DNA from: Intrasporangium sp.
GTDB lineage: Bacteria; Actinomycetota; Actinomycetes; Actinomycetales; Dermatophilaceae
DNA length: 64,000 nucleotides
Direction: 5' to 3'
Assembly: GCF_032907665.1 (NCBI RefSeq)
Contig: NZ_JAJJPG010000002.1
Coordinates: 5,320-69,319, forward strand
The notes beneath the pieces are model-generated. The model was not told the DNA's origin and did no database searches. It was given only the letters and a program-made list of their open reading frames with translations. The position numbers and the translations under genes are program-made. How positions within the stretch are numbered: the first letter of the stretch is position 1; every line of letters starts with the position of its first letter. This document shows, in pieces, positions 1,542 through 63,285 of the stretch.

Positions 1542-2548
1542 GCGACCACCTCCCGAGCGTCGGTCGGGTCGCTCTCGGCGGCCGCGGTGTCAGCCGAGTG
1601 CCCGGTGAGGGTGAGGAACACGTCGTCCAGCGTGGGTCGGCGCAGGGCCAGGTCATCGATCCGTATGCCGCTGTCCCCGAGCTCGGCGAGCACCGCCGAG
1701 ACCGCGCCCACCCGGTCGGACACCGGGGCGCTGACCTGCTTCAGGTCCACGTCGACCTGGGGCGCCTCGTCGGCCCATCGTGCGATGGCAGCCCGAGCGC
1801 GGTCGAGGTCTGCGGGGTCGACGACGGTGACCTCGAGCCGGTCGCCGCCGACGCGCCGTTTCAGCTCGTCCGGCCGACCCTCCGCAATGACGCGGCCATG
1901 GTCCATCACCGAGATACCGGCCGCGAGCTGGTCGGCCTCGTCGAGGTACTGCGTCGTCAGCAGGACGGTCGTGCCGTCGGCGACGAGCTGTCGAATCGCG
2001 GCCCACACCTCGCCCCGGTTGCGCGGGTCGAGGCCGGTCGTCGGCTCGTCGAGGAAGAGCACCTCCGGGCGGAAGAGCAGGGTGACCGCCAGGTCGAGGC
2101 GGCGGCGCATCCCCCCGGAGTACTTCTTCACCGGCTTGCCGGCCGCCTCGACGAGCCCGAAGCGCTCGAGCAGCTCGTCGGCTCTGGCCGCTGCGTCGCG
2201 CCTGCCCAGTCGCCCGAGCCTCCCGAAGAGGACGAGGTTCTGTCGGCCGCCGAGGATCTCGTCGACGGCAGCGGTCTGTCCGGACAGTCCGATGCGCCGC
2301 CGCACGCCCTGCGGATCGGCTCGCACGTCGACACCGGCGACCCTCGCCTCACCCTCCTGCAGGGCAAGCAAGGTCGCCAGTGTGCGGACGGCGGTGGTCT
2401 TGCCGGCTCCGTTGGGTCCGAGCAGTCCCCACACGACCCCGCGGGGCACGCGCAGGTCGAAGCCGTCCAGAGCGCGCTCCCGGCCGTACGTCTTGACGAG
2501 TCCTCGCGCGAGAATCGCGTCATCAGGTCCTGGCCCACCGAGTGCCAT
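1538..2548 (-). CDS. DrrA-family ABC exporter ATP-binding protein
   Basis: Walker A GPNGAGKT, signature YSGGMRRRLDLA, Walker B LFLDEPTTGLD; GAGGGG RBS before the ATG at 2548. Confidence 0.92.
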   Translation of the reverse strand: MALGGPGPDDAILARGLVKTYGRERALDGFDLRVPRGVVWGLLGPNGAGKTTAVRTLATLLALQEGEARVAGVDVRADPQGVRRRIGLSGQTAAVDEILGGRQNLVLFGRLGRLGRRDAAARADELLERFGLVEAAGKPVKKYSGGMRRRLDLAVTLLFRPEVLFLDEPTTGLDPRNRGEVWAAIRQLVADGTTVLLTTQYLDEADQLAAGISVMDHGRVIAEGRPDELKRRVGGDRLEVTVVDPADLDRARAAIARWADEAPQVDVDLKQVSAPVSDRVGAVSAVLAELGDSGIRIDDLALRRPTLDDVFLTLTGHSADTAAAESDPTDAREVVA

Positions 2549-2566
2549 GTCAGTCCCCTCTGGTAA

Positions 2567-2612
2567 CTTTACGGTGTAAAGCATTGCTGGGACAGATTAA
2601 AGTACGCCGTAA
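2567..2612. promoter_or_regulatory. Candidate TetR operators in the drrA/tetR divergent promoter
   Basis: Palindrome CTTTAC-GGT-GTAAAG (2567-2581) and related TACGCCGTAA (2603-2612). Confidence 0.65.
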
Positions 2613-2626
2613 GGAGTTGGCAAGCC

Positions 2627-3436
2627 GTGGTCATCTACGTGGGCCAGGGAGACCCCGAGAAGTCCATGCGCCTGTTGTGGACCGGCTCGGTGGAGCCGGA
2701 GAACCCGCAGGTCAGACGCGGTCCCAAGGCCGGCCTGACCGCAGGGAGCATCGTCGCTGCGGCGATCGCGCTCGCCGACGAGGGCGGCATCGACGCCGTG
2801 TCGATGCGCGCGGTGGGCCAGCGGCTCGGCAAGACGCCCATGGCGCTCTACACGTACGTGCCCAGCAAGGCCGAGCTCATCGACCTCATGTGGGACACCG
2901 CGCTCGGCGAGCTGCCGGACGACTACGACACCGGCGAGGGGTGGCGCCCGGCCCTGCGCCGCTGGGCCCACGACCTGCGCGCATTCCTGCTCCGGCACCC
3001 GTGGATCCTCGACGTCTCCGGAGCACGAGTCGGCATGGGTCCCAACGAGACCCGCAACCAGGAGACGTCCGCGAGGATCCTCGCCGGACTCGGGCTCCCG
3101 GGCGCAGCCCTCATGTCCTGCATCTGGTCTGTCGGCAGCTTCGTGCACGGCAACGCCCGACCGATGGCGGAGACCCGGCAGGCCGAGGTGGTCACCGGGG
3201 TCGGCGAGACGGAGTGGTGGCTGGCCCGCTCGCGGATGCTCGAGGAGGTTGCGCCCGACTACGCCGAGCGTTTCCCCGTGCTCACCCGGATGGCGGCAGA
3301 GGGAGCCTTCGACCAGGTCGACCTCGAGGGGTCCTACCTCGAGGCAGAGTACGACACCGTGTTCGAGTTCGGCCTGGAGCGGATGCTCGACGGGCTCGAG
3401 CGGTTCATCGACGCACACTCCACCCGCGAGGGCTGA
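2627..3436 (+). CDS. TetR/AcrR family regulator with TetR_C domain
   Basis: HTH SMRAVGQRLGKTPMALYTYVPSKAELIDLM; divergent from the ABC exporter. Confidence 0.92.
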   Translation: MVIYVGQGDPEKSMRLLWTGSVEPENPQVRRGPKAGLTAGSIVAAAIALADEGGIDAVSMRAVGQRLGKTPMALYTYVPSKAELIDLMWDTALGELPDDYDTGEGWRPALRRWAHDLRAFLLRHPWILDVSGARVGMGPNETRNQETSARILAGLGLPGAALMSCIWSVGSFVHGNARPMAETRQAEVVTGVGETEWWLARSRMLEEVAPDYAERFPVLTRMAAEGAFDQVDLEGSYLEAEYDTVFEFGLERMLDGLERFIDAHSTREG

Positions 3437-3523
3437 CGCGAGGCACGGACCCTGGAAGGACCCGGGCAAGCGAGACCGAGCCCAGCGGCATACGGGAAAG
3501 TGGCGTGTCGTCCCCTCAGGTGT

Positions 3524-6247: not shown

Positions 6248-6272
6248 GGCACGTCGATAGGAGACCCCGACC

Positions 6273-8231: not shown

Positions 8232-9278
8232 ATGACCACCGAAGCCCCAGCCAAGCCGGACTCGTCGGCTCGCTTCCTCAGCCAGCTCGACCTGACCGCC
8301 CCGCCCCTCGAGGTGCGGGACCTCCACGTCGAGTTCACCACCACGAGCGGCCGGGCCCACGCGGTCAACGGCATGAACTTCGTGCTCGACCAAGGTGAGA
8401 CGCGGGCGATCCTCGGCGAGTCCGGATCTGGCAAGAGCGTCACGGCGCAGGCCATCATGGGCATCCTCGACACTCCCCCCGCGCAGATCACCAAGGGCGA
8501 GATCCTCTATCGCGGCGTCGACCTGCTCAAGATCTCCGACGAGGACCGTCGGCGGGTGCGGGCCAACCACATCGCGATGATCTTCCAGGACGCGCTCTCG
8601 GCCCTCAACCCGGTCTTCACCGTGGGCTTCCAGCTCGGGGAGCTCTACCGGAAGCACCGCGGGATGTCCCGTCAGGCCGCGAAGGCCAAGGCCGTCGAGC
8701 TGCTCGACATGGTGCGGATCCCGGCGGCCAAGGACCGGGTCAACGACTTCCCGCACCAGTTCTCGGGCGGGATGAGGCAGCGCGTCATGATCGCGATGGC
8801 CCTGGCCCTCGAGCCGGAGATCCTCATCGCGGACGAGCCGACCACGGCCCTCGACGTGACGGTCCAGGCGCAGGTGATGGGGCTGTTGTCCGAGCTCCAG
8901 GCCGAGCACAACATGAGCCTGATCCTCATCACCCACGACATGGGTGTCGTGGCTGACGTCGCCGACTCGATCTCGGTCATGTATGCCGGACGGGTCGTCG
9001 AGGACGCTCCGGTGCGCGACATCTACGCCCGGCCGGCCCACCCCTACACGAAGGCGCTGCTGGAGTCGATCCCGCGCGTCGACATGAAGGGGCAGCAGCT
9101 CGCCGTCATCAAAGGCCTGCCGCCGGTACTCACCAACATCCCGCCCGGCTGCGCCTTCCATCCTCGCTGCAAGTTCGCGCAGGACAACTGCAAGGTCCCG
9201 CCGGAGCCACCGCACTACGACGTCGACGTGGACCGGGTCGCCGCGTGCCACTACTGGAGGGAGGTCATCGACTCATGA
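8232..9278 (+). CDS. oppD: Peptide ABC ATPase OppD
   Basis: GESGSGKS, PHQFSGGMRQR, ADEPTTALDV, HPYT. Confidence 0.93.
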   Translation: MTTEAPAKPDSSARFLSQLDLTAPPLEVRDLHVEFTTTSGRAHAVNGMNFVLDQGETRAILGESGSGKSVTAQAIMGILDTPPAQITKGEILYRGVDLLKISDEDRRRVRANHIAMIFQDALSALNPVFTVGFQLGELYRKHRGMSRQAAKAKAVELLDMVRIPAAKDRVNDFPHQFSGGMRQRVMIAMALALEPEILIADEPTTALDVTVQAQVMGLLSELQAEHNMSLILITHDMGVVADVADSISVMYAGRVVEDAPVRDIYARPAHPYTKALLESIPRVDMKGQQLAVIKGLPPVLTNIPPGCAFHPRCKFAQDNCKVPPEPPHYDVDVDRVAACHYWREVIDS

Positions 9279-10514: not shown

Positions 10515-12050
10515 ATGAGCACGACCACCGAGACCGCGTCCGTCCAGCCCGACGGCACCCGGCGACCTTCAGCTCGCCAATGGATCGCCCTGGGCGTCCT
10601 GGCCCTGACCGCGCTGCTGCTGAGCCTCGACGTCAGCGTTCTCTATCTGGCCCTTCCCGCCCTGTCGGCTGATCTTGGTGCGAGCACCACTCAGCAGCTG
10701 TGGATGCTCGACATCTACTCCTTCGTTCTGGCGGGCTTCCTCGTGACGATGGGCGCCGTCGGGGACCGAGTCGGACGGAAGCGTCTCCTGCTCATCGGAG
10801 CGGTCGCCTTCGGTGTCGCGAGCGCCTGTGCGGCCTACGCCTCGTCGCCGGGTCAGCTCGTCATGTGGCGGGCGGTGCTCGGGATCGCGGGCGCGACCCT
10901 GATGCCGTCGACGATGGGCCTGATCCGCACGATTTTCACCGACGAGAAGTCGATGACGACCGCGATCGGCGTCTGGTTCAGCTGCTTCATGGGCGGCATG
11001 GCGGTCGGCCCGCTCGTGGGCGGTCTTCTGCTCCAGCACTTCTGGTGGGGCTCGGCCTTCCTGCTCGGCGTGCCCTTCATGGTCCTGCTCGTTCTCGTCG
11101 GGCACCGGGTGCTGCCCGAGTCCGACCGCCAGACCGGTGTGCGGATCGACCTCGTGAGCGCCGTGCTGTCGCTGGCGATGACCCTTCCGGTCATCAACGG
11201 CTTCAAGGAGATCGCCCGGGGCGGAAGCACGACCGCCGCGAGCGTGTGGATCACCATCGGGCTCGGAATGGCGGTCTTCTTCGTCCGCCGTCAGAGGAGC
11301 ATCGACAACCCTCTCGTCGACCTCGCGCTGTTCCGGAGCAGGGCCTTCTCGACAGCGCTGACAGTGATGCTCATCGGCGGCGTCGTCATGGCGGGGGTCT
11401 CGTTCCTCAGCACGCAGTGGCTCCAGCTCGTCGCGGGGCTCGACCCGCTGGGCGCGGGCCTCTGGATGCTCCCGGCCAACCTGGCCCTGCTCGCTGGTTC
11501 GTCATCGTCCGCGTTGATCGCGCGCCGGCTCGGCACGGGCCGCACCATGGCCGGCGGTCTCGTCGTGTGCGCGGCGGGACTGGCCCTCTACACCCAGGTC
11601 GGACCGTCCGCCGGCCTCGGGTTGCTCGTCTTCGGCATGTGCCTGACCTCGTTCGGCATCATGGTCCCCTCGACGCTCACGATGTCGGTGATGCTGCAGT
11701 CCGCACCGCCGGAGCGTGCCGGCTCGGTCGCGTCGATGTCGGAGACCTCAGGCGAGTTCGGGATCGCGGTGGGGATCGCGGGCCTCGGCTCGCTCGCCAC
11801 CTTCGTCTACCGGGACGAGCTCAGCCCGTATGCCGCTGAGCACGCTCCCGGCGCCGCGACCGTCGCGCTCGACTCCCTCGCAGGCGCGGTCCAGGCCGCT
11901 GCGGCCCTCCCCGGTACCGCTGGTCGGGAGCTGCTCTCTGCCGCACAGGACGCCTTCACCACGGGCCTCAACGTCGTTGCGGGGGTGGGCGCCGGGCTCT
12001 TCCTCCTCGTCGCAGCGGTGGCGCTCCGGGTGCTTCGCGGGGCCCACTGA
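10515..12050 (+). CDS. 14-TMS MFS efflux pump (QacA/SmvA-like, DHA2)
   Basis: WMLDIYS, GDRVGRKRLL (motif A), GPLVGGLLL, LVDLALFR. Confidence 0.88.
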   Translation: MSTTTETASVQPDGTRRPSARQWIALGVLALTALLLSLDVSVLYLALPALSADLGASTTQQLWMLDIYSFVLAGFLVTMGAVGDRVGRKRLLLIGAVAFGVASACAAYASSPGQLVMWRAVLGIAGATLMPSTMGLIRTIFTDEKSMTTAIGVWFSCFMGGMAVGPLVGGLLLQHFWWGSAFLLGVPFMVLLVLVGHRVLPESDRQTGVRIDLVSAVLSLAMTLPVINGFKEIARGGSTTAASVWITIGLGMAVFFVRRQRSIDNPLVDLALFRSRAFSTALTVMLIGGVVMAGVSFLSTQWLQLVAGLDPLGAGLWMLPANLALLAGSSSSALIARRLGTGRTMAGGLVVCAAGLALYTQVGPSAGLGLLVFGMCLTSFGIMVPSTLTMSVMLQSAPPERAGSVASMSETSGEFGIAVGIAGLGSLATFVYRDELSPYAAEHAPGAATVALDSLAGAVQAAAALPGTAGRELLSAAQDAFTTGLNVVAGVGAGLFLLVAAVALRVLRGAH

Positions 12051-25684: not shown

Positions 25685-25762
25685 GCGTCAGGTGCCGGCC
25701 ACGCGGACGCGGGCCCAGCGGCATACGGCCCCTTGTGTTGACAGTCCTGCAAGGATCGGCAC

Positions 25763-27022
25763 ATGGCTGAGTCGCGCACCCACCTCATCGGCCTGCTCCT
25801 CGGAGCCGAGGAGGACTGGCCCACGGCGTTCGAGGAACTGCTCGGGCTGGTCGGCCCCATCACCACCGACGACGGAGTCACCCACGAGCTGAGGGCCGAG
25901 CGCCTGACCATCGAGCCGTTCGACCTGCGCCAGCCGGTGCGGACCGAGCTCGTCATCGACCGGCTCGCCCACTGGTACTACCACCCGCGCGAATGGCTCA
26001 AGAAGGCGGCGCTCGTCGACGACACCTACCTGCTCAACAGCCCGTTCACCTTCCAGTCGATGGAGAAGCACAGCGCCTACTGCGCGCTCATGCGCCTCGG
26101 GCTCAAGGTGCCCCAGACGATCCTCGTGCCCTACAAGCACCCCGTGGACAACGTCCGCTGGGCCTACACCAGCGCGAAGTACAACCGTCCCTTCGACCTC
26201 AAGCAGATCGCGAACGACCTCGGCTACCCGCTCTACATGAAGCCGTTCGACGGCGGGGGCTGGCGTGGGGTCTCACGGATCGACGACGAGGGCGACCTGG
26301 TGCGCGCCTACGACGAGTCCGGCGAGATGCTCATGCACCTGCAGGCCACGATCGACTACGACGTCTTCGCCCGGGCCCTGTCGATCGGCCCCGAGACGAT
26401 GGTGATGAACTTCCGGCCCGAGGAGCCGATGCACAACCGCTACGCCGTCAGCCACGGTTTCCTCAGCCCGAGCGCCGGACGGGAGACGGCGGCGATCAGC
26501 CGGATCGTCAACGCCTTCTTCGGCTGGGAGTTCAACTCGTGCGAGATGCTCGTCACGGGCGACGACGTCTACCCCATCGACTACGCCAACGCCTGCCCGG
26601 ACGTCGCCGTCACCTCGCTGCACTACTACTTCCCATGGGCCATCAAGGCTCTCGTGCGGTGGACGGCCTACTGCCTCGTCACGGGCCGGCGCTCCAGGAC
26701 GGTCGACCTCGAGACGCGCCGCTACTTCGACGTGGCCGACCGCGACGACCTCGACGACGACGAGAAGCTCGACGCCTACCTCGCGATCGCGGACGAGTAC
26801 TTCGAGACCGCTGCCTACCAGGAGTGGTGCGCCCGGCACCTGGCCCACTTCGACGCGGCCGCCCTCGAGTGGTTCCGGAGCGACGCCTTCACCCGGATGC
26901 TGCGGCACACCGTCGACGCGACCTATCCCGAGCACGAGCGGGAGCGGTTCCTCGCGCACTTCCACGGCCTCGTCGGCCTGTGGACGCAGGACGAGGGGGC
27001 CCGGCTCGACGTCGCCCACTAG
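25763..27022 (+). CDS. ATP-grasp domain protein of unknown function
   Basis: YMKPFDGGGWRGV, NSCEM, IDYANACPD. Confidence 0.75.
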   Translation: MAESRTHLIGLLLGAEEDWPTAFEELLGLVGPITTDDGVTHELRAERLTIEPFDLRQPVRTELVIDRLAHWYYHPREWLKKAALVDDTYLLNSPFTFQSMEKHSAYCALMRLGLKVPQTILVPYKHPVDNVRWAYTSAKYNRPFDLKQIANDLGYPLYMKPFDGGGWRGVSRIDDEGDLVRAYDESGEMLMHLQATIDYDVFARALSIGPETMVMNFRPEEPMHNRYAVSHGFLSPSAGRETAAISRIVNAFFGWEFNSCEMLVTGDDVYPIDYANACPDVAVTSLHYYFPWAIKALVRWTAYCLVTGRRSRTVDLETRRYFDVADRDDLDDDEKLDAYLAIADEYFETAAYQEWCARHLAHFDAAALEWFRSDAFTRMLRHTVDATYPEHERERFLAHFHGLVGLWTQDEGARLDVAH

Positions 27023-27151
27023 GCCGTATGCCGCTGGGCCCGGCGTCCAGCTCGCGTGTCCTTCCGCGTCAGTCGGGTAAGGGCGGGCTGTCCCACCCGT
27101 CCAGCACCCATCGACGTCGAGCACGGCGTCCGAGCCGAAAGGGATGAGCCG

Positions 27152-28732: not shown

Positions 28733-29603
28733 CCGGGCGGCCGACCGTGCCGCGAACCCATCCGTGAACCCGTCGACCGACCCGGCGGGCCGGTCAGTCG
28801 ACCCGTCCCGGGACTCGGCCGCCCACCGACCCGCACCCGCGCTGGCAGCGCGCTCAGCGGCATACGGTCGGGGTCGACGGATGCTCAAGGCCGTCGGCTA
28901 CGGCCTCGTCTTCGCCGTCCCGGTGACGCTCCTCGCTTTCGTCGTGCGGCAGAAGTTCCTGCCCGTCATCGAGTTCGACGAAGCCGTCATCGCCGCTGCG
29001 ACCGACGTGACCCGCGAGAACCCTGGGCTGCGCCAGGTCCTCGTCGTCTGGCAGGAGCTGACGCAGCCGAAGTGGCCCTACATCGCCGCGACGATCCTGT
29101 GCATCGTCGTCTGGAAGCGCCATCACCTCAAGACCCGAGCCCTGTGGGCCTTCGTCACGATGATGGTGGCCTGGAACCTCCAGCTGCTCCTCAAGGAGAT
29201 CGTCCAGCGCGCCCGCCCCGTGGTCAGCGACCCGGTGTCCCACGCCCCGGGCTACAGCTTCCCCTCCGGCCACGCCGCCAACGCCGCGGCGGTCGCCACC
29301 ATCGTGACCCTCCTGGTCTGGCCGGTCCTCAGCCGGCGCGGTCGTCGGATCATGCTGGTCAGTGCCGTCGCCTATGCGGTGATCACGGCCGCCGACCGCG
29401 TGTTCCTCGGGGTGCACTTCCCGTCGGACGTCACCGCGGGCCTGCTCTTCGGCGCGGGCCTCGGCATCGCGTCCTACGTGGGCTACCTCGGCTGGAACCC
29501 CAGCCACCGTCACGCCCCGCCGCCGCCCGAGGGCACGGCCGGTCCCGAGCCGCACGAGCTCAATCCCCTTCCCCCTGAAGAAAGCGACGACGATGAGCGT
29601 TGA
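28725..29603 (+). CDS. PAP2 family phosphatase (start could instead be the ATG at 28881)
   Basis: K..VQRARP, YSFPSGH, RVFLGVHFPSDV. Confidence 0.82.
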   Translation: MPDRAADRAANPSVNPSTDPAGRSVDPSRDSAAHRPAPALAARSAAYGRGRRMLKAVGYGLVFAVPVTLLAFVVRQKFLPVIEFDEAVIAAATDVTRENPGLRQVLVVWQELTQPKWPYIAATILCIVVWKRHHLKTRALWAFVTMMVAWNLQLLLKEIVQRARPVVSDPVSHAPGYSFPSGHAANAAAVATIVTLLVWPVLSRRGRRIMLVSAVAYAVITAADRVFLGVHFPSDVTAGLLFGAGLGIASYVGYLGWNPSHRHAPPPPEGTAGPEPHELNPLPPEESDDDER

Positions 29604-31258: not shown

Positions 31259-32959
31259 TCAGTCCGGCAGGAGGTCTCGCGGTTCGGCGTCGACGGCATA
31301 CGTGGGGGTGCGCGCGAGCCGGGTGCGGGCGCCCTCGAGCATGGACACCGACGCGCTGCCGGTCGTGAGGGCCTCGAGGAAGTCCTCGGCCGTGATCTTG
31401 AGCAGGGTGCTCGGCTCGCGCGCGGTGACGGTCGCCGTCCTCGGGATCCGGCGCAGGAGGCCGATCTCGCCGAAGTACTGGCCCTCCGCCATCGACGGGA
31501 GCTCCCGCTCCATGGCCTCGCCGCCGCGGGACCGGACCGCCATCGAACCCGACTCGATGACGTAGAAGGCGTCGGCGTCCTGGCCCTCCCGGACGACGTC
31601 GGTGCCGGCGTCGACGGTGATCTCCTCGGCGTTGGAGGCGAGGCGCTCGAGGACGGGCCGTGAGGCCTCGGCGAGGATGGCGGCCCGCTGCAGGACGGCG
31701 ATGCGCGGCTCGAGGGCAGCGACGGTGGCGACGTTCGCGTTGTCCATGCGACGCAGCACGGGCAGGCCGAGGAGGCAGAGCACCGGGATCCCGAGGCCTG
31801 CCATCCAGAGCGTGGCATCCAGGGACGTGGCCGCCAGCGCCAATGGGGTGACGAAGGCGCCGAGCGAGATCGCGGCGAGGACGAAGGTGAAGAAGGCGCC
31901 GAACACCCGCCCGAGCTTGTCCGCGGGCAAGGAGCGCTGGAGGGCAGTGACGGCGAGGACGTCGACGATGATCGTCCCCCCGCCCCGGACCACCTCGATG
32001 GCGAAGGCGGCGACGGGACTCTCGACGACGAGGAAGAAGAGTGTCGGCAGGCAGTAGACCGCCATGCCGGCGAGGATGGCGGTCCCGAGCCGGGGGAGTG
32101 CGGAGATCCGGTTGACGAGTCCCGCCGCCGCCAGACCGCCGACGCCGAGCCCGGCGAGCAGGTAGCCGTAGCCGTCCGCGCCGGTGCCCAGCCGCTCGTC
32201 GGACAGGACGATGAGCTGCACGGTGTCGACGCCGTAGACGAAGCTGGCGATGACACTGAAGGCACACAGCACGGTGGCGGTCTGGGACGACGCGATGGCC
32301 TGGACGCCGACGAGCATCTGCCGGAGCGGGTTGCTCGCGCCGCCCTCGGTGACGTCCACCGGCTGCGACCGGACCGTCATCCGCCCGGTGATGAGCGCAG
32401 AGACGAGGAACGTGCCCGCATTGATGGCGAAGACGAGGGCGGGCGAGCCGAGGAGCAGCAGCAGACCACCGATGGCCGGGCCCGCGATGATCGCGATGTT
32501 GTCGACGGTGTTGCGGATGGTGTTCGCCGCGGCGAGCTCCCGCTCCGGGACGGTCTGTGGCGTCAGGGCGGCGGTCGCCGGTTCGTAGGTCATGCCGAGG
32601 ACCGAGCAGACCGCCGCGAGAACGATGGCGAGTGCGGGGTGGCCACCCACCGCCGCGAGCACGGCCAGACCGATCATCAGCGCTGCCGACGCGACATCGA
32701 TCGAGATCATGAGCCGGACCCGCTCGAAGCGGTCGGCGAGGACGCCGCCGTAGGCCCCGAGGAGGAGCGACGGGACGAACCGGCCGATCGTGACGGCGCC
32801 GAGCCAGACGGGCGACCTCGTGGCCTCCCAGACATAGCCCATCAACGCGACGTTGTACGCCCACGACCCCGCGAAGGACGTGGTGAACGCGATCATGAGC
32901 AGGCGAAAATCCCTGTGGCGCAGGACTCTCAGCAAGCCGTCCGGTTTGTCGGTCCTCAT
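31259..32959 (-). CDS. MFS transporter fused to a C-terminal cNMP-binding domain
   Basis: LRHRDFRLL, GVLADRFER; FGEIGLLRRIPRTATV phosphate-binding cassette. Confidence 0.87.
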   Translation of the reverse strand: MRTDKPDGLLRVLRHRDFRLLMIAFTTSFAGSWAYNVALMGYVWEATRSPVWLGAVTIGRFVPSLLLGAYGGVLADRFERVRLMISIDVASAALMIGLAVLAAVGGHPALAIVLAAVCSVLGMTYEPATAALTPQTVPERELAAANTIRNTVDNIAIIAGPAIGGLLLLLGSPALVFAINAGTFLVSALITGRMTVRSQPVDVTEGGASNPLRQMLVGVQAIASSQTATVLCAFSVIASFVYGVDTVQLIVLSDERLGTGADGYGYLLAGLGVGGLAAAGLVNRISALPRLGTAILAGMAVYCLPTLFFLVVESPVAAFAIEVVRGGGTIIVDVLAVTALQRSLPADKLGRVFGAFFTFVLAAISLGAFVTPLALAATSLDATLWMAGLGIPVLCLLGLPVLRRMDNANVATVAALEPRIAVLQRAAILAEASRPVLERLASNAEEITVDAGTDVVREGQDADAFYVIESGSMAVRSRGGEAMERELPSMAEGQYFGEIGLLRRIPRTATVTAREPSTLLKITAEDFLEALTTGSASVSMLEGARTRLARTPTYAVDAEPRDLLPD

Positions 32960-36647: not shown

Positions 36648-36735
36648 CCCGTGAGTATGCCGCCGGGTAGGCTCGTGCGCCCAACGCGGGCCGTGGTGCG
36701 GGGCAGGGGATGGGGCGGAGCGGACCGTATGCCGC

Positions 36736-37236
36736 TCAGTCGCGGGCGGCGCGTCGCTCGAGGGCGCGCTCGAGGAGGGTCAAGGCGTGCACAGTGGTCC
36801 GGTCGAGGATGTCCTCGGGCTCTCCGTCCCAGCGCTGCAGGTCCGTGGTGACCTCGCCGTGGCTGCTCAACCCGAACCACACCGTGCCCGGCGGCTCGCC
36901 GTCCTGCGGGTCGGGCCCGCCGACCCCGGTGACGGCGACGGCGAGGTCGGCGTCGAGGAGGCCGGCAACCCCGACGGCCATCGCCGCGGCGGCCACCTCG
37001 CTGACCACAGGTCCGTCCGGCACCCCGAGCACGCGGTGCTTGACGTCGCTCGCATACGCCACGAGACACCCCTGGAACCACTCGCTGGAGTGGGGCGCCG
37101 CTCCGAGGTGGCACGAGACCTTCCCCCCGGTGAGGGACTCGGCGACTGCGATGGTGCGGGCGTCGCGCATCGCGGCGCGGGCGATCGCCGCCGAGGCCCG
37201 CTCGGCCTGGCTGGTGAGGTCATCAGGCGTGCTCAT
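36736..37236 (-). CDS. CinA C-terminal domain protein (NMN amidohydrolase-like)
   Basis: AESLTGG, LVAYAS, VTGVGGP, PGTVW. Confidence 0.87.
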   Translation of the reverse strand: MSTPDDLTSQAERASAAIARAAMRDARTIAVAESLTGGKVSCHLGAAPHSSEWFQGCLVAYASDVKHRVLGVPDGPVVSEVAAAAMAVGVAGLLDADLAVAVTGVGGPDPQDGEPPGTVWFGLSSHGEVTTDLQRWDGEPEDILDRTTVHALTLLERALERRAARD

Positions 37237-37340: not shown

Positions 37341-42251
<4,911 letters not shown>

Positions 42252-46312: not shown

Positions 46313-48954
46313 GGCTGCGGCTGCTCGCGCTGCTCGGCGGACAGGCGGTCGCCCTCGGGCTGACCGTCGCCTTCCTCGTCGTCCCCGCGAGCGCCGTCTT
46401 CCTCCACACCTATGGCGCAGGGGCCCTGCCCTACGCGTACCTGACGGTCGCGGTGGGCGGCGTCGCCGTGTCGTCCGCCCTCACGGTGGCGCAACGCCGT
46501 ATGCCGCTGGGCCGGCTCGCGCTCACCGTGCTGAGCCTCTATGTGGTGCTCGTCTTCGGGGCCTGGCTGCTGCTGAGCCGGTGGGACATGGCCTGGGTCA
46601 CCTTCGTCCTCATCGTCCTCTTCCCGCTCTCGATCCCCACCGGCTTCCTCGTCGTCGGCTCGCAGGCCGTGCGGCTCTACGACGTGCAGACCCTCAAGCG
46701 GGACTTCCCGCGGATCGTGTCAGGCTTCTCGATCGGCTTCGCGGCCGGTGGTCTGGCGGCTGCGGCACTGGTCGAACCCCTCGGAGCGGCGACGCACCTG
46801 CTCCTCATCGACGTCGCCATGGCCCTCGTCTTCATCGGGGTCGTCTGGGCCACGAACCGGCAGTACCCCGGCCAGCTCCTCGCAGCGCCGTCCGAGACGC
46901 GCCGGCCCACGGAGCCGAGGCGGTCCACCCCCCGGCTGGCCGAGCTGCGGCTGCTCCGCGAGCCCTTCGTCCTGCTCGTGCTCGGCTACCAGATCCTCTC
47001 AGCTGCCGTGACCCAACTGTTCGACTACGTCGTCTGGGAGCGAGCCGCCGCCTACTACGAGGACCCGGAGAGCCTGGCCCAGTTCATGGGAACCTTCGGT
47101 GCGATCCTCAACATCGTCGCGGTCCTCTTCACGCTCCTGCTGGCGGGGCGCCTCCTCGCGCGCTTCGGCATCGGATTCGGCTTGCTGGCCAACCCGTTCG
47201 GCGCCCTCCTGCTGACCATCGTCGTCCTCGGGGTGGGCGCGGGCCCGGGCATCGCGACCTTCGCCTACCTCGTCGCCGTGTGCGCGGCCCAGGTCGTCGA
47301 CATCACGTTGACCGACGGCACGACCCGCACCTCGATCGCCGCGACCTACCAGGGCATCCGGCGGGCCGATCGGCTGCGCGCCCAGACCTTCGTCGAGGGG
47401 GCGGGGATCCCCATCGCCGTCGGGCTCGTCGGGGCCTTCCTCCTCGTCGTCCGAGCCCTGGGCCTCGACGTGCGGGCCGTCGTGTGGACCACCGGAGCGC
47501 TCACCCTCGTCTGGATCTGGCTGGCGGTCCGGGCACACCGCCGCTACGGTCAGCGGCTCGGCACGGTGCTCACCGACCGGTCCTGGGACCCGGTGGCGCT
47601 CCGGGTCGACGACACGGCGGCCACGGCGGTCGAGCGGCTGCTCGAGAGCCGCGACGCTGTCGATCGGTGCACGGCGATCGAGGTCCTCAGCGACGCCCGC
47701 TCGCCGGCGGTCGTGCCCGTCGCCATGGAGGCGCTCTCGGACGTCGCAGCCGCCGTGCGCAGCGTCGCGGTCGAGGCGATCGCGGGCGCCGATGCCGCGG
47801 CGCGCCCTGAGGTCGCGGAGCGACTCGTCACGCTTCTCGCTGACCCCGACGCCGGGGTGCGCGCACGGGCCGCGGCCGCCGTGTCGCGAGAGGGATCGGA
47901 CCGGCGGGAGGACGGGCACGGGGTGTGGCGAGAGATGCTCGCCGACACGTCGACCAGGGTGGAGGCCCTCCTCGCCGCGGCCGCGGTGCCCAGCGCCGTC
48001 CTCGTCCCGGACCTCGTCGGCCTGTTGGGCGACCAGCGCATTCCACCCGCACTCGATGCCGCACTCAGCGCCCACGGTGACCATCTCGTCGACGAGCTCG
48101 CCGGGCGCCTCGAGGGCGGCCCCGCGACCCCGGGGACGGCGATCCTCAGCACCGCCGTGGCGAGAGGCGGCGGTGAGCGGGGTCGAGCGCTGCTCCTTGC
48201 CGCGCTCGTCGACGACCGCGCAGACGTCGCGGCAGCGGCGGCCACCGGCCTGTCCCGCGTGCCGCGCGAAGGGCGGGCCGCGGCCCTCGACGCCCGCGCC
48301 AGACGCGCCGTCGCCACGGCCGTCGACCGGGAGCTCCTGCACGCCGGTCATCTCGTCGACGCGCTCGACGCTCTCGATGCGCTCGAGGCGAGTGTCGATG
48401 CGGCGCCCCTGCGCGAGGCGCTCGCCGACGAGCTGGCCGAGTCGTCCCGGCGGCTGCTCACGCTCGTGGCTGTCGTCGTCCCCGGCCTCACGGCGGAGCG
48501 GGTCACGGCGGGCCTCGGGTCCAGCGACGAGCGCACGCGAGGACTCGCACAGGAGCTGATCAGCGTCGCACTGGGCCGACGGGCCTCCCGGGTCCTCGCG
48601 GTGGTCACTCCCGGCCTGGCCCCGCGGGAGCGGCTGGCCGGCCTCGGCCGGGCCGGCGCGGTGACGGACCCAGCCGCTCTCGTGGTCGACATCGCGCGCG
48701 GCGCGGAGGTGCCTTGGCGCGATCCCTGGCTGCGGGCGTCTGCCCTGCGGGTGCTGCCCGGCATGGCGCCAGAGGCCGTCGACGAGGTCGTCGCCACCCT
48801 TCGCACCGAGCGACGAGCGGGGGCCGGCGCCTCCGCCGCGGGATCCACGCTGGACTGGGTCGTCACGGAGACGGTGCAGTGGCTGGATCAGGCGGAGGCG
48901 TCGGTGGCGAGTCGGAAGTCCGCCAGCGCCTCGGCCGACCCGGAGCTGCCCTGA
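46309..48954 (+). CDS. MFS-like (Npt/TLC-like) membrane domain plus HEAT-like helical repeats
   Basis: About 12 hydrophobic helices to ~aa 410, then repeats such as LSDVAAAVRSVAVEAI and LADPDAGVRARAAAA; DPWLRASA. Confidence 0.68.
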   Translation: MRLRLLALLGGQAVALGLTVAFLVVPASAVFLHTYGAGALPYAYLTVAVGGVAVSSALTVAQRRMPLGRLALTVLSLYVVLVFGAWLLLSRWDMAWVTFVLIVLFPLSIPTGFLVVGSQAVRLYDVQTLKRDFPRIVSGFSIGFAAGGLAAAALVEPLGAATHLLLIDVAMALVFIGVVWATNRQYPGQLLAAPSETRRPTEPRRSTPRLAELRLLREPFVLLVLGYQILSAAVTQLFDYVVWERAAAYYEDPESLAQFMGTFGAILNIVAVLFTLLLAGRLLARFGIGFGLLANPFGALLLTIVVLGVGAGPGIATFAYLVAVCAAQVVDITLTDGTTRTSIAATYQGIRRADRLRAQTFVEGAGIPIAVGLVGAFLLVVRALGLDVRAVVWTTGALTLVWIWLAVRAHRRYGQRLGTVLTDRSWDPVALRVDDTAATAVERLLESRDAVDRCTAIEVLSDARSPAVVPVAMEALSDVAAAVRSVAVEAIAGADAAARPEVAERLVTLLADPDAGVRARAAAAVSREGSDRREDGHGVWREMLADTSTRVEALLAAAAVPSAVLVPDLVGLLGDQRIPPALDAALSAHGDHLVDELAGRLEGGPATPGTAILSTAVARGGGERGRALLLAALVDDRADVAAAAATGLSRVPREGRAAALDARARRAVATAVDRELLHAGHLVDALDALDALEASVDAAPLREALADELAESSRRLLTLVAVVVPGLTAERVTAGLGSSDERTRGLAQELISVALGRRASRVLAVVTPGLAPRERLAGLGRAGAVTDPAALVVDIARGAEVPWRDPWLRASALRVLPGMAPEAVDEVVATLRTERRAGAGASAAGSTLDWVVTETVQWLDQAEASVASRKSASASADPELP

Positions 48955-54532: not shown

Positions 54533-55486
54533 TCACGCACGATCGAGGCTGGTGAGTCGGGCGAGCTGGGCTGCCAGCTCGCCCGCCTCGACGAAGCTGG
54601 TGTGCGTGCCGGCTGACCCGCACGCCCACGCGCCGCCGACACTTCCGGCGAGCGCGGCTGTCTGCGCATCCGAGCCGCCCAGCCAGGCGTGCAGGAAGGC
54701 AGCCACGTAGCTGTCGCCGGCCCCGTTGGAGTCGACGACGGCGCGCCCGGGGAGCTGCACGGCCGGCACCTCCACCATCGACCCGCCCCGCTCGGTGAGC
54801 CGGCTGCCTCGCGCACCGTCCATGACGACGACGACTCGCGCCCGGCCGTTGGTGAAGATGTCCGTGACGACGTCTTCCTCGGTCCGTGATCCCGGCCGAC
54901 CGAGGCGGGACCCGGACAGGAAGACGAGGTCGGCGGCATACGCGAACGGCCGGTGGTGGTCCGCCATCCCGTCCCAGTCGTGGAGGTCCGTCGACGTCGA
55001 GATCCCCGCCGCGGTGGCGTCGGTGAGCGCATGGATCGTCCAGGCCATGATCGAGGCGTGCACGTGCCTCGCACTACCCAGCGAGGCGCGCCACAGGTCC
55101 GGGTCCGGGACGAAGTCGTAGGGGTGGCGCCCGTCGTAGAAGGAGAGCCGGCGCCCGTGGGCGTCGACGAGGTTGACGGCACGTCGTGTCCCGGAGGGGT
55201 GGGTCTCGTGCCCGAAGGACAGGCCTTCAGCCGCGGCGCGCTGCATGATGAGGCGGCCCTCGTGGTCGTCCCCGATGACGTCGACGAAGCGGGTCCGCAG
55301 GCCGAGGCGATGACAGCCGAGGGCCACGCCGAGACCCGTGTGGCCGACGTAGGCCTCGATGGGCGGCACGCCGTACGAGTCGGCCATGGGCACGGGCAGG
55401 GCATCGACCCGCACGATGGTGTCGACGCCTGCCCCGGCGACGACGAGCACGTCGCACCCCGTCGCCCCATCGGTCGCCGGGCTCAT
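54533..55486 (-). CDS. PfkB family carbohydrate kinase
   Basis: VDSNGAGDSY anion hole; GARGS. Confidence 0.87.
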   Translation of the reverse strand: MSPATDGATGCDVLVVAGAGVDTIVRVDALPVPMADSYGVPPIEAYVGHTGLGVALGCHRLGLRTRFVDVIGDDHEGRLIMQRAAAEGLSFGHETHPSGTRRAVNLVDAHGRRLSFYDGRHPYDFVPDPDLWRASLGSARHVHASIMAWTIHALTDATAAGISTSTDLHDWDGMADHHRPFAYAADLVFLSGSRLGRPGSRTEEDVVTDIFTNGRARVVVVMDGARGSRLTERGGSMVEVPAVQLPGRAVVDSNGAGDSYVAAFLHAWLGGSDAQTAALAGSVGGAWACGSAGTHTSFVEAGELAAQLARLTSLDRA

Positions 55487-56703: not shown

Positions 56704-57503
56704 CGGTCCAGTCCAGAAGGGTCGCTCGGAAGGCCTCCCGGGTCGTGGGCGCACACGAGCTCGACCTCGTCCGTATGCCGCTGGGCCAGCTCGGACAGGG
56801 ACGTGCGGGTCTCGCTCCACGCCCTTCGATCGGTGCGGACCACGACCTCGGACAGAAGCAGGGGCAGGGGTGTCCGGTCGCCCGTGAAGGCGCGGTGTGA
56901 GAACGAGGCGTCACCGACGTGGAGCAGCCACGGCGTGCGGCCCTCGGACCGGCGGACGGCGACGCCGATGTGTCCCGGGACATGTCCCTCGAGAGGAACC
57001 ACGTGCAGGTCACCCCCGCCGAATGGCAGAGGTGCACTGGGCAGACCGAGGAGCTCAGCGGCATACGGCGGCGTCGTGCTCCAGCGGGGACCGTGCGCCC
57101 ACTGCACCGCCCGCATCCGGCCGGCGAAGCGCAGGGGGACGCTCGGCCTCACGTTGGCGAGCATCCGTGGCGACACGTGGACGGTGGCCCGAGGGAAGTC
57201 GCTGAGGCCACCCGCGTGGTCGCTGTCCAGGTGCGTCAGGATGATGTGCCGCACGTCGGCGGGGTCGAGTCCGAGCGCACGGGTCCGCGCCTGCGCGGTC
57301 TCGCCCGGGTCGAGCACAGGGCGGCTCAGCACGCGGAGCACGCGGCCGACCCGTCGGTTCGGACGTGCGATGTCCTGGAGGCCGAAGCCGGTGTCGACGA
57401 GGACGAGGCCGTCGTCGCTCTCGATGAGGAGGCAGTGGCACACGAGGTCGCCGCCCACGGGCCGCATGGTTCCGCAGTTGAGGTGGTGCACCCTGAGCGG
57501 CAC
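56700..57503 (-). CDS. Metallo-beta-lactamase fold hydrolase
   Basis: THLDSDHAGG, GHVPGH, GDA, CAHD. Confidence 0.87.
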   Translation of the reverse strand: MPLRVHHLNCGTMRPVGGDLVCHCLLIESDDGLVLVDTGFGLQDIARPNRRVGRVLRVLSRPVLDPGETAQARTRALGLDPADVRHIILTHLDSDHAGGLSDFPRATVHVSPRMLANVRPSVPLRFAGRMRAVQWAHGPRWSTTPPYAAELLGLPSAPLPFGGGDLHVVPLEGHVPGHIGVAVRRSEGRTPWLLHVGDASFSHRAFTGDRTPLPLLLSEVVVRTDRRAWSETRTSLSELAQRHTDEVELVCAHDPGGLPSDPSGLDR

Positions 57504-59225: not shown

Positions 59226-59359
59226 GCCCTTCCCCTCACATCGGTGCCGGCGATCTCACCCTAGCCAAGCCGTCGCCATGCCGTTCCCGTATGCCGCCGG
59301 GCTGGCTCCACGGACGCGGTGGTCTTGCGTCCCTCTCGGCTTCCCCTAGGGTGCGACAC

Positions 59360-61546: not shown

Positions 61547-61618
61547 GTCCCCCCCTTCCCAGTCGGCCCTCTGCGGGCGCCTGCCGGCTCGCCGACCTGC
61601 CCGGCGAACCACCTCAAT

Positions 61619-61634
61619 TCGAACATGGTTTCGG
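61619..61634. promoter_or_regulatory. LexA (SOS) box-like site upstream of the HNH gene
   Basis: TCGAAC-ATGG-TTTCGG versus the actinobacterial consensus TCGAAC-N4-GTTCGA. Confidence 0.5.
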
Positions 61635-61776
61635 GCGATCCGGCAAGGCATTTTCCACAGTATGCTCCGCGAAAGCGACTGGTGCGCAAAGAAACTGGCA
61701 AGGCGGTGCCAGCTCAGCGGCATACCACTGAGGTCTGACAACCCACCGCTGCCGCGACGGACGCTACGGTCTGCCC

Positions 61777-63285
61777 ATGGACTACGTCGTCGCGATCGAC
61801 CAGGGCACCACGAGCACGCGCGCGATCGTGTTCGACCGGTCAGGGAGCATCGTCGCGATGGACCAGCGCGAGCACCGCCAGATCTTCCCCCGGTCCGGCT
61901 GGGTGGAGCACGACCCGCTCGAGGTCTGGGAGAACGTCCGGGCGGTCGTCGGCGGCGCGCTCGGCAAGGCGAACCTCGATGCCCAGCGCATCGTCGCCGT
62001 GGGCCTCACGAACCAGCGCGAGACGACCCTCGTGTGGGACCGCACCACCGGCAAGCCGGTCCACAACGCCATCGTCTGGCAGGACACCCGCACCCAGGCG
62101 ATCTGCGACGAGCTCGCCGGCGACGTCGGTCCCGACCGGTTCACGGAGCAGACCGGACTCCCGCTCGCGACCTACTTCGCCGGCCCGAAGATCCGCTGGA
62201 TCCTCGACCACGTCGAAGGGGCTCGTGGGCGGGCAGAGCGGGGCGAGCTGCTGGCCGGGACGATGGACACATGGATCCTGTGGAACCTCACCGGCGGCCC
62301 CGACGGCGGCGTCCACGTCACCGACGTCACGAACGCCTCGCGCACCCTGCTCATGGACCTGCGCACGCTCGAGTGGGACGCGCAGATCGCGGCCGAGATG
62401 GGCGTCCCGACGGTCCTGCTCCCCGAGATCCGCTCGTCCTCGGAGGTCTACGGCTCGTGCCAGCCGGGCATTCTCCTCGACGTGCCTGCGGCCGGCATCC
62501 TCGGCGACCAGCAGGCGGCCACCTTCGGGCAGGCCTGCCTCGAGCCGGGCACCGCCAAGAACACCTACGGCACGGGCAACTTCATGCTCCTCAACACCGG
62601 CGAGGAGATCGTCCCGTCACGACACGGGCTCATCACCACGGTCTGCTACCGGCTCGGTGATGCGGCACCGGTCTACGCACTCGAGGGGTCCATCGCAGTG
62701 ACGGGGTCTCTCGTCCAGTGGCTGCGCGACAACCTCGGCCTCATCCGGTCGGCCGACGAGATCGAGCAGCTCGCTGCCACCGTCGAGGACAACGGCGGGG
62801 CCTACTTCGTGCCGGCCTTCTCGGGACTCTTCGCGCCGCACTGGCGTCCCGACGCCCGTGGGGCGCTGGTTGGCCTCACCCGCTACGTGAACAAGGGGCA
62901 CATCGCGCGAGCAGCCCTGGAAGCCACGGCCTTCCAGACGCGAGAGGTGCTCGATGCGATGAACGCCGACAGCGGGGTCCCGCTCACCGAGCTGCGGGTC
63001 GACGGCGGAATGGTCGTCAACGACACGCTCATGCAGTTCCAGGCCGACCTCCTCGGCGTGGACGTCGTTCGTCCGAGGGTGGCCGAGACCACCGCGCTCG
63101 GGGCGGCGTATGCCGCTGGGCTGGCCGTCGGGTACTGGTCGGGTCCCAGCGACGTGACGGACAACTGGGGGGAGGACCGGCGCTGGTCGCCATCGATGGA
63201 CCCGACCGAGCGCGAGCGCCTCTACCGCAACTGGAAGAAGGCGGTGCAGCGCACCCTCGACTGGGTCGACGACGACACGCCCTAG
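61777..63285 (+). CDS. glpK: Glycerol kinase
   Basis: [44 protein letters not shown]. Confidence 0.95.

Follow-up and report, generated by a model that had tools for sequence, protein, structure and literature searches.

A strand-specifically spaced sequence word maintained across Intrasporangium genomes, tentatively read as a tag for own-kind DNA

What keeps a short, non-palindromic sequence repeated again and again along 64,000 nucleotides of an Intrasporangium genome? The first-pass annotation of this stretch (hereafter the window, meaning the whole of the DNA analysed at its full length) had drawn attention to a 16-bp motif, suggested that it might be a DNA-uptake sequence or a genome-wide binding site, and knew of no such motif described for actinobacteria; our literature searches likewise found no published description of the word. 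To our knowledge, and as far as literature searches reach, only two families, both proteobacterial, have established tags that bias DNA exchange towards self.

Results

All ten exact copies of the 13-mer CAGCGGCATACGG that had been placed in the window were recovered, at 1661(-), 3483(+), 11826(-), 25716(+), 27024(-), 28855(+), 41837(+), 46497(-), 56771(-) and 57056(+), as were the one-mismatch copies at 36725(-) and 59287(-), to which a third, at 63106(-), can be added. The 11-mer core CAGCGGCATAC is additionally present at 61715(+) and 63108(-), and GCC or GCT stands on the 5′ side of most copies, as had been claimed. Complete, variant and partial copies in the window are as follows:

1661..1676, minus strand: copy exact over the 13-mer (GGACAGCGGCATACGG) with a variant 5′ flank, within a gene call
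3480..3495, plus strand: full copy GCCCAGCGGCATACGG with 5′ arm ..GAGACCGA, in a convergent-gene spacer
8979..8994, minus strand: bare 8-mer core CGGCATAC without flanks; weak, possibly chance
11826..11841, minus strand: full copy GCTCAGCGGCATACGG, antisense within an MFS transporter gene, frame P-Y-A-A-G
25713..25728, plus strand: full copy GCCCAGCGGCATACGG, in the spacer 3′ of an aminotransferase gene
27024..27039, minus strand: full copy, with a stop codon 2 nt away
28852..28867, plus strand: full copy GCTCAGCGGCATACGG, kept at the orthologous site in 5 of 5 congeners examined
31288..31303, plus strand: core-only copy (GACGGCATACGT) within an MFS/cNMP-binding gene, antisense Y-A frame
36653..36668, minus strand: partial copy (GCGGCATAC) with the 3′ GG missing
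36725..36740, minus strand: one-mismatch copy ACTGAGCGGCATACGG, its 5′ flank holding the TGA stop of the neighbouring gene
38310..38325, minus strand: degenerate copy (GTCGGCATACGA), with a full word near the same position in G003 and G005
41834..41849, plus strand: full copy GCCCAGCGGCATACGG near the 3′ end of a 1,646-aa Lhr helicase ORF
46497..46512, minus strand: full copy with 5′ arm GAGCCGGCCCAGC
54928..54943, plus strand: 10-mer core GCGGCATACG without the genus-specific flanks, in a gene, antisense Y-A-A frame
56771..56786, minus strand: full copy in a divergent (- then +) pair, the next copy being 285 bp away
57053..57068, plus strand: full copy GCTCAGCGGCATACGG
59287..59302, minus strand: one-mismatch copy GCCCGGCGGCATACGG in a divergent spacer
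61712..61727, plus strand: copy with a variant 3′ end, GCTCAGCGGCATACCA
63106..63121, minus strand: one-mismatch copy GCCCAGCGGCATACGC within a glycerol kinase gene, antisense frame

The claim that the motif lies far above chance holds at every scale. Exact and one-mismatch copies of the 13-mer together make 13 matches in the window, where dinucleotide-preserving shuffles lead one to expect 0.13 and none of 100 shuffles attained 13; the 8-mer core occurs 19 times. Counted through the whole Intrasporangium genome (3.996 Mb in 261 contigs), as the first-pass annotation had proposed, the 13-mer is found 437 times (224 plus, 213 minus) against 0.12 expected from a third-order Markov model, the 10-mer 957 times against 8.6, and the 8-mer 1,314 times against 72; the enrichment thus goes beyond the Markov model and, as shown below, beyond codon usage. 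The 16-bp motif is therefore real and highly iterated, but its length had been understated: information around GGCATACG runs from -15 to +9, and nothing is conserved beyond ~25 nt. The full word of ~25 nt is GGGAGC(GA/CG)GC(C/T)CAGCGGCATACGGC; the Intrasporangium form can be written GGGAGC(GA/CG)GC(C/T)CAGCGGCATACGG(C), with CGGCATAC as its core. The footprint is asymmetric and comprises two conserved blocks with no internal pairing. No enrichment of one-mismatch variants was found, measured against an expectation that is itself imperfect.

The word is confined to part of one family. The 13-mer is present in 414–669 copies in all 10 genomes of the genus and in at most 11 copies elsewhere. Of the 121 genomes sampled from the family, 60 have the 10-mer core 100 times or more and ~50 are word-poor; counted by genus, about half of the family shows enrichment of this core. 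In 143 genomes of 23 other families it stays at control level, and no other family of the order is enriched. Each lineage has its own spelling: genus g42, for example, has the 8-mer without flanks as its dialect, at a density of 1.4 copies per kb. In viral contigs the 16-mer was never seen beyond single copies attributable to chance.

Between 54 and 68% of copies are intergenic, as against ~14% of the genome, and density falls from convergent through co-directional to divergent spacers and is lowest in coding sequence. No relation to the direction of transcription was found. Inverted pairs less than 100 bp apart number 91, and head-to-head pairs are enriched ~3-fold between convergent genes, which recalls the terminator pairs of DUS and USS. 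Roughly a third of the copies are in-frame parts of genes and are spelled with rare codons: Y is encoded by the rare codon TAT in 54% of Y-A-A tripeptides, compared with 11% genome-wide; ‘.CG TAT GCC GC.’ occurs 150 times as against 6 with the TAC spelling; and ‘GCG GCA TAC’ occurs 116 times where 11.6 are expected. Codon-aware enrichment is 8–25-fold or more, and the TAT excess and the Y-A-A spellings lead us to reject background codon usage as the cause of the word.

Existing copies are held far tighter than their surroundings. In a comparison of two species, G003 and G000, 80 of 100 orthologous sites retain an intact 8-mer core (14% expected), and identity per position is 0.90–0.97 inside the word versus 0.67–0.85 in the flanks. 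At 27024..27039 the 16-mer is kept in G001, G003, G007 and G008, except at the degenerate Y, and the flanks have diverged. In clean between-species alignments at word sites the differences are point changes, and no target-site duplications were found at word copies. Sites are not positionally shared between genera. In accessory DNA the density of the word is halved, and two large islands have hardly any copies. New copies form where point substitutions alter near-cognate sequences, both within genes and, by preference, between them. What selection or biased transmission maintains here is a signal spread over the genome, and not a mobile element.

That the word is non-palindromic, is balanced between strands without replichore polarity and occurs in genes as well as spacers, all noted in the first-pass annotation, is true of the whole genome. 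None of the 25 largest contigs of G000 shows a strand imbalance, and in the complete genome G003 the arms beside position 1 have strand counts of 54/56 and 54/55. KOPS and architecture-imparting polar octamers, whose strong strand polarity reverses at origin and terminus, were rejected as candidates, there being no polarity in either G003 arm or in any G000 contig. Spacing is another matter: same-strand pairs occur at 0.20–0.42 times expectation over 100–1500 bp, with avoidance extending to ~1.5–2 kb, whereas opposite-strand pairs, at 0.86–1.06 times expectation, are independent of one another, except for tight hairpin pairs. This strand-specific exclusion was replicated in G003 and, at shorter range, in G116, and so holds for three genomes and two dialects. 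Each strand carries an over-dispersed series of words independent of that on the other, and a copy is redundant only with copies on its own strand, which implies a strand-specific or directional reader. We infer that this reader sees one strand, either as single-stranded DNA or in the duplex via an enzyme tracking one strand; a reader of this sort suits a Chi-like signal, or transformation at a single-stranded stage, as well as, or better than, recognition of duplex DNA at the cell surface.

The comEC and Tad-pilus genes, which had been proposed as a place to look, are indeed present (ComEC in 117 and TadE in 120 of 121 family genomes, Intrasporangium included), but they are equally present in relatives lacking the word and therefore single out no reader. 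Of the type IV-a pili, PilM was not found. RecC was not found in G000, G003 or G007, and RecBCD is absent from the genus; across the family RecC is present in 11 of 60 word-rich genomes compared with 22 of 50 in the word-poor group. Gene pairs of the AdnAB type occur in G000, G003 and G116, and also in word-poor genomes. A search for the Y1/RAYT transposase (PF01797) gave no match in G000 (91% complete), while control genomes matched. No report of competence or natural transformation in Intrasporangium was found in searchable papers; Micrococcus luteus, of the same order, transforms using ComEC/Tad-type machinery (PMC6370729).

Discussion

Our leading reading, drawn by analogy with Neisseria and Haemophilus and held tentatively, at rather less than even confidence, is that the word may be an uptake-sequence-like tag for own-kind DNA. 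DNA carrying it would be more readily taken in, or would survive and recombine, with discrimination probably occurring while Tad-pilus/ComEC transformation passes through a single-stranded stage; word-bearing alleles would then displace those lacking the word (molecular drive). A single copy on each strand of an imported stretch would be sufficient, and the same-strand exclusion zone would follow from this. The first-pass comparison with DUS and USS survives in that all the genomic properties it listed hold; where it falls short is in redundancy restricted to the same strand, a departure from the classic USS. A duplex-reading surface receptor predicts strand-blind exclusion, which is not observed, and this counts against the uptake-tag reading. 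So does the missing enrichment of one-mismatch variants, given the imperfect expectation: one-off variants are abundant for USS and are not abundant for the word.

The DUS of Neisseriaceae (GCCGTCTGAA, 12-mer ATGCCGTCTGAA), which has dialects and is bound by the minor pilin ComP, resembles the word in many respects. Both are non-palindromic and present in hundreds to thousands of copies, equally on the two strands and with no replichore bias; both occur within genes and, in excess, between them, with a minority of inverted pairs near gene ends; both combine a shared core with lineage-specific dialects; and both are scarcer in recently acquired DNA. Intrasporangium, however, belongs to another phylum and has one membrane, no type IV-a pilus (as judged from PilM) and no ComP; and the Intrasporangium form is longer (16–25 nt) and ~4 times sparser, although the 8-mer dialect of g42 has a DUS-like density. 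We found no report of same-strand-only exclusion for DUS. The USS of Pasteurellaceae, a 9-nt core within a 29-nt extended motif, similarly joins a conserved core to weaker extended flanks and accumulates copies via point mutation; its genic copies are in preferred frames and less conserved stretches, and ~10% form inverted repeats. Unlike the word, with roughly one third of its copies in genes, 65% of USS lie in ORFs. Even spacing is also shared, to go by the citation of Karlin et al. in PMC1939737. In H. influenzae, the action of USS is orientation-independent and one USS is bound per fragment (PMC1939737), so that redundancy would be strand-blind, unlike the strand-specific redundancy of the word.

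The main rival of the uptake tag is a Chi-like break-repair signal for AdnAB, which we think unlikely: an AdnAB-type helicase-nuclease would read the word as single-stranded DNA while resecting from a double-strand end, and switch from degradation to recombination. Chi, in RecBCD and AddAB systems, is read on one strand by a tracking helicase-nuclease, and the word shares with it the character of a short, oriented, species-specific marker of self, present about once per few kb, with a shared core that at 8 nt has the size of a Chi site. A tracking enzyme predicts exclusion on the same strand but none across strands, a second copy just behind the first adding little, and each strand needs a series of its own because enzymes arrive from either side; the observed exclusion fits such an enzyme at least as naturally as it fits the uptake tag. 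The Intrasporangium core, at ~1 per 3 kb, has a density similar to that of Chi in E. coli, depletion in accessory DNA suits a self marker, and the AdnAB-type pairs are there in G000, G003 and G116. The word also contains AGCGG, the Chi of B. subtilis, presumably by coincidence at 70% GC. Yet RecC is missing from the genus, its distribution in the family does not follow that of the word, and word-poor genomes carry AdnAB-type pairs too. Every Chi that we know of is co-oriented with replication, which the strand counts in the G003 arms show the word not to be; the 16–25-nt genus form, the thousand-fold enrichment of the long forms and the 80% positional conservation far exceed known Chi; and a constant core with long, genus-specific flanks is more reminiscent of DUS dialects. 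AdnAB, moreover, has been proposed to be Chi-independent, no Chi being known for it, and whether AdnAB, or Actinobacteria generally, has a Chi-like signal is an open question (PMC5314763).

Strong preservation site by site, over-dispersed spacing on each strand, an asymmetric 25-nt footprint in two unpaired blocks and indifference to transcription direction would also suit some other chromosome-wide process, an explanation that we regard as improbable: the site of a lineage-specific nucleoid or architectural protein, or the target of a one-strand methyltransferase serving, for example, strand discrimination in repair. A one-strand mark would naturally require two independent series. A duplex-binding architectural protein, on the other hand, sees both orientations alike, and its exclusion should be strand-independent, which is not what is observed; no candidate protein was identified, and restriction to part of one family is unusual for a core chromosome function. 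HIP1 (GCGATCGC), the hyper-abundant cyanobacterial octamer, is a palindrome linked to methyltransferases. Like HIP1, the word has 8 nt at its core, can occur about once per kb and is kept by selection with no agreed function; unlike HIP1 it is asymmetric, its two orientations forming separate series. With a similarly low probability, the word may be neither uptake sequence nor Chi but a form of genome punctuation as yet unknown, two evenly spaced strand series serving a machine that tracks or marks single strands, which would have originated in a single actinobacterial family and split into dialects; in a phylum lacking MutS/MutL, a mark that tells the strands apart during repair would be an example. 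In its abundance, its preference for intergenic DNA and its 91 tight inverted pairs, which could form hairpins, the word recalls REP/REPIN sequences, but a miniature mobile element (REP/REPIN-, MITE- or IS-end-like) spreading by transposition is very improbable. Copies are mostly single and non-palindromic, with no covariation (mutual information in the 5′ arm ~0.01) and no decayed partners; many stand in frame with rare-codon spelling; differences between species are substitutions and not insertions, the indel cases being ordinary variation in spacer length; and neither a RAYT in G000 nor more than chance single copies in viral contigs were found. That the word is the end of a known IS or MITE, a possibility raised in the first-pass annotation, is excluded by its unconserved flanks, the lack of target-site duplications and the in-frame coding copies. 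An artefact, whether from contaminating adapters or as a side effect of base composition and codon usage, has next to no probability: the core does have the 9-mer CGGCATACG in common with the Illumina P7 adapter, but its flanks are unlike the adapter, the word recurs in 10 independent Intrasporangium assemblies, among them that of I. calvum 7 KIP, finished in 2010 (4,024,382 bp), its orthologous positions are conserved, and codon-aware tests reject background.

The word of this Gram-positive soil lineage bears every genomic hallmark of a self tag, and redundancy confined to the same strand narrows the search to a reader of one strand. Given ~60 word-rich and ~50 word-poor genomes among the 121, and dialects ranging from an 8-mer to a 25-mer, that reader should be findable by phylogenetic profiling, and it is testable with simple probes in the culturable, non-pathogenic I. 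calvum. If borne out, kin-biased transformation in Actinobacteria or, alternatively, a Chi for AdnAB would each be new. The word could also be used as a marker for binning Intrasporangiaceae DNA, and because of the 9 nt shared with the Illumina P7 adapter it may confuse adapter trimmers.

Genome-wide abundance and shape of the word

The first-pass annotation reported an iterated, non-palindromic motif (the word) in the window, and its coordinates are all correct: the 13-mer CAGCGGCATACGG occurs there as ten exact and three one-mismatch copies, and the 11-mer CAGCGGCATAC is additionally found at 61715(+) and 63108(-). Thirteen matches with at most one mismatch compare with an expected 0.13, and none of 100 dinucleotide-preserving shuffles reached this number. 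The 8-mer CGGCATAC is present 19 times in the window. Between window copies, the sequence beyond the word shows no relation.

The source genome (G000; 3.996 Mb, 70.6% G+C, 261 contigs), in which the window is G000:C2:5320-69319, is a draft assembly that is 91% complete. The possibility that enrichment might be absent genome-wide is dismissed by the count of 13-mers, which are also evenly divided between strands.

Copies of the word and its parts in the source genome (G000), with third-order Markov expectations in brackets
8-mer CGGCATAC: 1,314 copies (72)
8-mer GGCATACG: 1,080 copies
10-mer GCGGCATACG: 957 copies (8.6)
13-mer CAGCGGCATACGG: 437 copies, 224 forward and 213 reverse (0.12)
16-mer GCCCAGCGGCATACGG: 261 copies

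In a position-frequency table the informative positions run from −15 to +9 relative to GGCATACG, and they give the consensus GGGAGC(GA/CG)GC(C/T)CAGCGGCATACGGC. The 5′ arm is a linear sequence with no stem: a small dyad gives the look of a hairpin, but positions −12/−5 and the other candidate pairs are without covariation (MI ∼0.01).

Distribution and dialects

All ten Intrasporangium genomes carry the 13-mer (414–669 copies each), whereas in 31 genomes from outside the genus (other genera, other families) the count is 11 or lower, which is the control level. The 10-mer core is more widely distributed: among 121 genomes of the family, 60 have at least 100 copies (maximum 1,385; ‘word-rich’), 11 have 30–99 and 50 have fewer than 30 (‘word-poor’), the reversed-pattern control giving roughly 0–140 copies per genome. 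It is at control level in 143 genomes from 23 other families of the order.

In genus g42 of the same family, represented by G116, the word is spelled as the bare (G)CGGCATAC and its flanks are not conserved; 400 kb contain 565 copies (1.4 per kb; 284 forward, 281 reverse). Lineages thus have the core in common, while spellings and densities are lineage-specific. A supposed second dialect, CGGCATAG (3.6-fold enriched), has no flanks and a codon-periodic context, and is unrelated.

Artefact, phage and mobile DNA

A 9-mer, CGGCATACG (e.g., window 3486-3494), is common to the word and the Illumina P7 adapter (CAAGCAGAAGACGGCATACGAGAT), and the literature matches for the 8-mers are all listings of this adapter. 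The shared 9-mer is a coincidence: presence of the word in ten independent assemblies of the genus rules out adapter contamination. There is a practical consequence, namely that in this family adapter or k-mer trimmers with short seeds could clip genuine reads ∼1,000 times per genome. The 2010 genome paper of I. calvum 7 KIP (finished genome, 4,024,382 bp) makes no mention of the word.

The first-pass annotation also allowed that the motif might prove to be the end of a known IS or MITE. MITE, IS and REP elements are ruled out by unconserved flanks, the absence of target-site duplications, coding copies that lie in frame and differences between species that are substitutions. The few species indels at word sites represent ordinary variation in spacer length and are likewise free of target-site duplications, and no Y1/RAYT transposase gene was found in the source assembly (91% complete). 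Nor are single copies decayed pairs: degenerate inverted partners beside them are not above control. A recombination or cassette site was rejected because junctions of kb-scale indels between G000 and its complete congener G003 carry copies no more often than any spacer; the inserts themselves are not consistently bracketed by copies. A phage link was also discarded: 18 viral contigs contain the 16-mer, each as one chance copy, and most are low-GC viruses. Overall, a mobile element or an artefact is highly improbable.

Location relative to genes

Gene calls were crude, home-made and GC3-based (3,306 genes over 85.5% of G000), and the coding and intergenic shares that follow are approximate. 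These calls place 54% of copies between genes. Another 135, called ‘coding’, are in unusual frames and show the full intergenic-type logo; these are probably spacers overrun by gene calls, and with them discounted the coding share is about one third.

Density of the word by context (G000)
Convergent spacers: 1.8 copies per kb
Co-directional spacers: 1.05 copies per kb
Divergent spacers: 0.7 copies per kb
Coding DNA: 0.135 copies per kb

The orientation of the word does not follow that of the genes beside it: in co-directional spacers 163 copies are oriented with the genes and 136 against them, and the counts are 137 for convergent and 105 for divergent. The lack of an orientation preference, together with an Rfam search of the whole window that matched no family, rules out a promoter, terminator or RNA motif. 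Intergenic single copies sit off-centre, with the 3′ end ∼25 nt from the facing stop codon and the 5′ end at ∼55–70 nt; the smaller gap is on the 3′ side in 254 of 393 such spacers (p = 7e-9).

Coding copies are held in two frames, P-A-A-Y-G (sense) and P-Y-A-A-G (antisense). The codon-aware test proposed in the first-pass annotation decisively rejects codon background as the explanation: in Y-A-A contexts Tyr is encoded by TAT in 54% of cases, compared with 11% overall, ‘.CG TAT GCC GC.’ occurs 150 times against 6 in the TAC spelling, and ‘GCG GCA TAC’ occurs 116 times where 11.6 are expected. The tripeptides themselves are enriched too (573 and 497 versus 345 expected).

Two loci in the window may be mentioned. 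A 419-aa ORF with no Pfam match (25763-27022(+)), immediately following a class-III aminotransferase gene of equal length, is situated between inward-facing copies at 25713-25728(+) and 27024-27039(-). Elsewhere, copies occur both within and between the genes for a 1,646-aa Lhr-type helicase with an AlkZ-like glycosylase domain (37311-42251(+)) and the adjoining DEAD/DUF3516 helicase (34104-36647(-)).

Copies exclude one another on the same strand

Neighbouring copies tend to point in opposite directions; the fraction that share an orientation is 0.29 in G000, 0.32–0.36 in G003 and 0.35 in G116. Pair-correlation analysis shows where this arises.

Same-strand pairs, observed/expected, by distance
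G000, 100–1500 bp: 0.20–0.42 (z about −5 per bin)
G000, 1.5–2 kb: 0.76
G000, beyond 2 kb: about 1
G116, under 100 bp: 0.25
G116, 100–300 bp: 0.53
G116, 300–600 bp: 0.63
G116, 600–1000 bp: 0.80
G116, beyond 1 kb: about 1

The pattern in G003 is that of G000; word density in G116 is five times that of G000. Opposite-strand pairs are at expectation across distances (0.86–1.06) except below 100 bp, where G000 has a 5.2-fold excess. These close pairs are either head-to-head with loops of 5–14 nt, or tail-to-tail with an offset of exactly 24 nt. Convergent and divergent arrangements of copies are equally frequent, and replichore polarity is absent, which rules out a replichore-polarised motif of the KOPS/AIMS kind.

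Because the avoidance holds for the bare 8-mer of G116, deletion between direct repeats is not its cause. Most simply read, a copy renders others close by on its own strand superfluous, while copies on the opposite strand go unseen. On this reading, whatever reads the word would read one strand.

Origin and maintenance

Comparison of 800 kb of G003 with G000 (flank identity ∼78–80%) shows that the word is held in place. The 8-mer core is intact at 80 of 100 sites with alignable flanks, where 14% (0.78^8) would be expected; identity is 0.90–0.97 at word positions against 0.67–0.85 in the flanks, and the high values include third-codon-like positions, which in the flanks have ∼0.70 identity. Where the word is lost in clean alignments the losses are single substitutions. 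For the window copies at 27024 and 28852, the 16-mer (except the degenerate Y) is kept in four and five congeners, respectively, within a spacer that is otherwise scrambled.

Between genera the word is not kept: in the comparison of G116 with G000 (73% identity), only 6% of 118 aligned sites have an intact word, which does not exceed the rate for control 8-mers, and its central A faces another base in 73% of aligned cases. Each lineage has therefore acquired a set of sites of its own through point substitution, which it now maintains. DNA of G003 that is absent from G000 has 0.15 copies per kb versus 0.31 in shared DNA, and two islands (28 and 44 kb) contain 4 copies against about 22 expected. 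Variants one mismatch away from the 8-mer show no enrichment in G000 and are mostly depleted in G116; caution is called for here, since the word itself inflates the Markov expectation.

Interspecies conservation dips locally around the word at orthologous sites in G003 and G000, with identity of 0.804 on the 5′ side and 0.830 on the 3′ side (p ∼0.001). As a sign of directional recombination this asymmetry was rejected: it is real, but most of it is contributed by copies close to gene ends, and deep inside genes it is marginal (0.809 vs 0.824, p = 0.02, n = 34).

Candidate readers

RecC was not found in G000, G003 or the congener G007, and a RecBCD Chi is thus excluded for Intrasporangium. Across the family RecC was found in 11 of the 60 word-rich genomes and in 22 of the 50 word-poor ones, a negative association in raw counts that ignore kinship. 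AdnAB-type pairs, two adjacent ORFs of roughly 1,050–1,430 aa that both contain a RecB-family nuclease domain, are present in word-rich (G000, G003, G116) and word-poor (G017, G081) genomes alike. There are apparently two such pairs each in G000 (G000:C24:19293-23593 and G000:C28:1826-2545) and G116 (G116:C1:17385-21553 and G116:C2:138791-143022), one in G003, one in G081, and one plus a weak extra match in G017.

ComEC is encoded by 117 of the 121 family genomes, including G003 and G007. A whole-genome search of G000 did not find its domain (PF03772), likely owing to the draft being 91% complete. TadE-type pseudopilins are encoded by 120 of the 121, and Intrasporangium lacks PilM-type pili. 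Micrococcus luteus, of the same order, transforms naturally with ComEC/Tad-pilus machinery (PMC6370729), and given the ComEC and TadE genes, machinery of this type is available. Among the profiled genes and domains (ComEC, TadE, PilM, RecC and the RecB-nuclease domain) none tracks the word.

What the word may be for

Every genomic hallmark of DUS and USS, the uptake sequences of Neisseria and Haemophilus, is present: abundance, strand balance, intergenic excess, some inverted pairs and dialects, as well as substitution-driven origin, maintenance and scarcity in foreign DNA (cf. PMC1939737). There is one difference. In the classic USS model one USS per fragment is bound, whatever its orientation (PMC1939737), and this model would not lead one to expect strand-specific exclusion; action of the word on single-stranded DNA would. 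Such DNA could be the strand imported via ComEC, where a single copy in each imported stretch would suffice, or the strand threaded through a helicase-nuclease such as AdnAB, for which no Chi is known (PMC5314763). The reading we tentatively favour is an uptake-sequence-like tag for own-kind DNA that would act at a single-strand step.

Reading of the word on the strand threaded through AdnAB would equally predict the exclusion if the word were a cell-autonomous Chi-like signal. Against a classical Chi, copies show no co-orientation with replication, and the 16–25-nt genus form, with its extreme enrichment and conservation, is more easily achieved by biased transmission than by per-site fitness; we regard a Chi-like signal as rather unlikely. 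Some other strand-specific chromosomal signal or mark is a slimmer prospect still. Read as its reverse complement, GTATGCCGCTG, the word is similar to the 12-mer DUS of Neisseria, ATGCCGTCTGAA (common ATGCCG..CTG), a resemblance that is probably coincidental.
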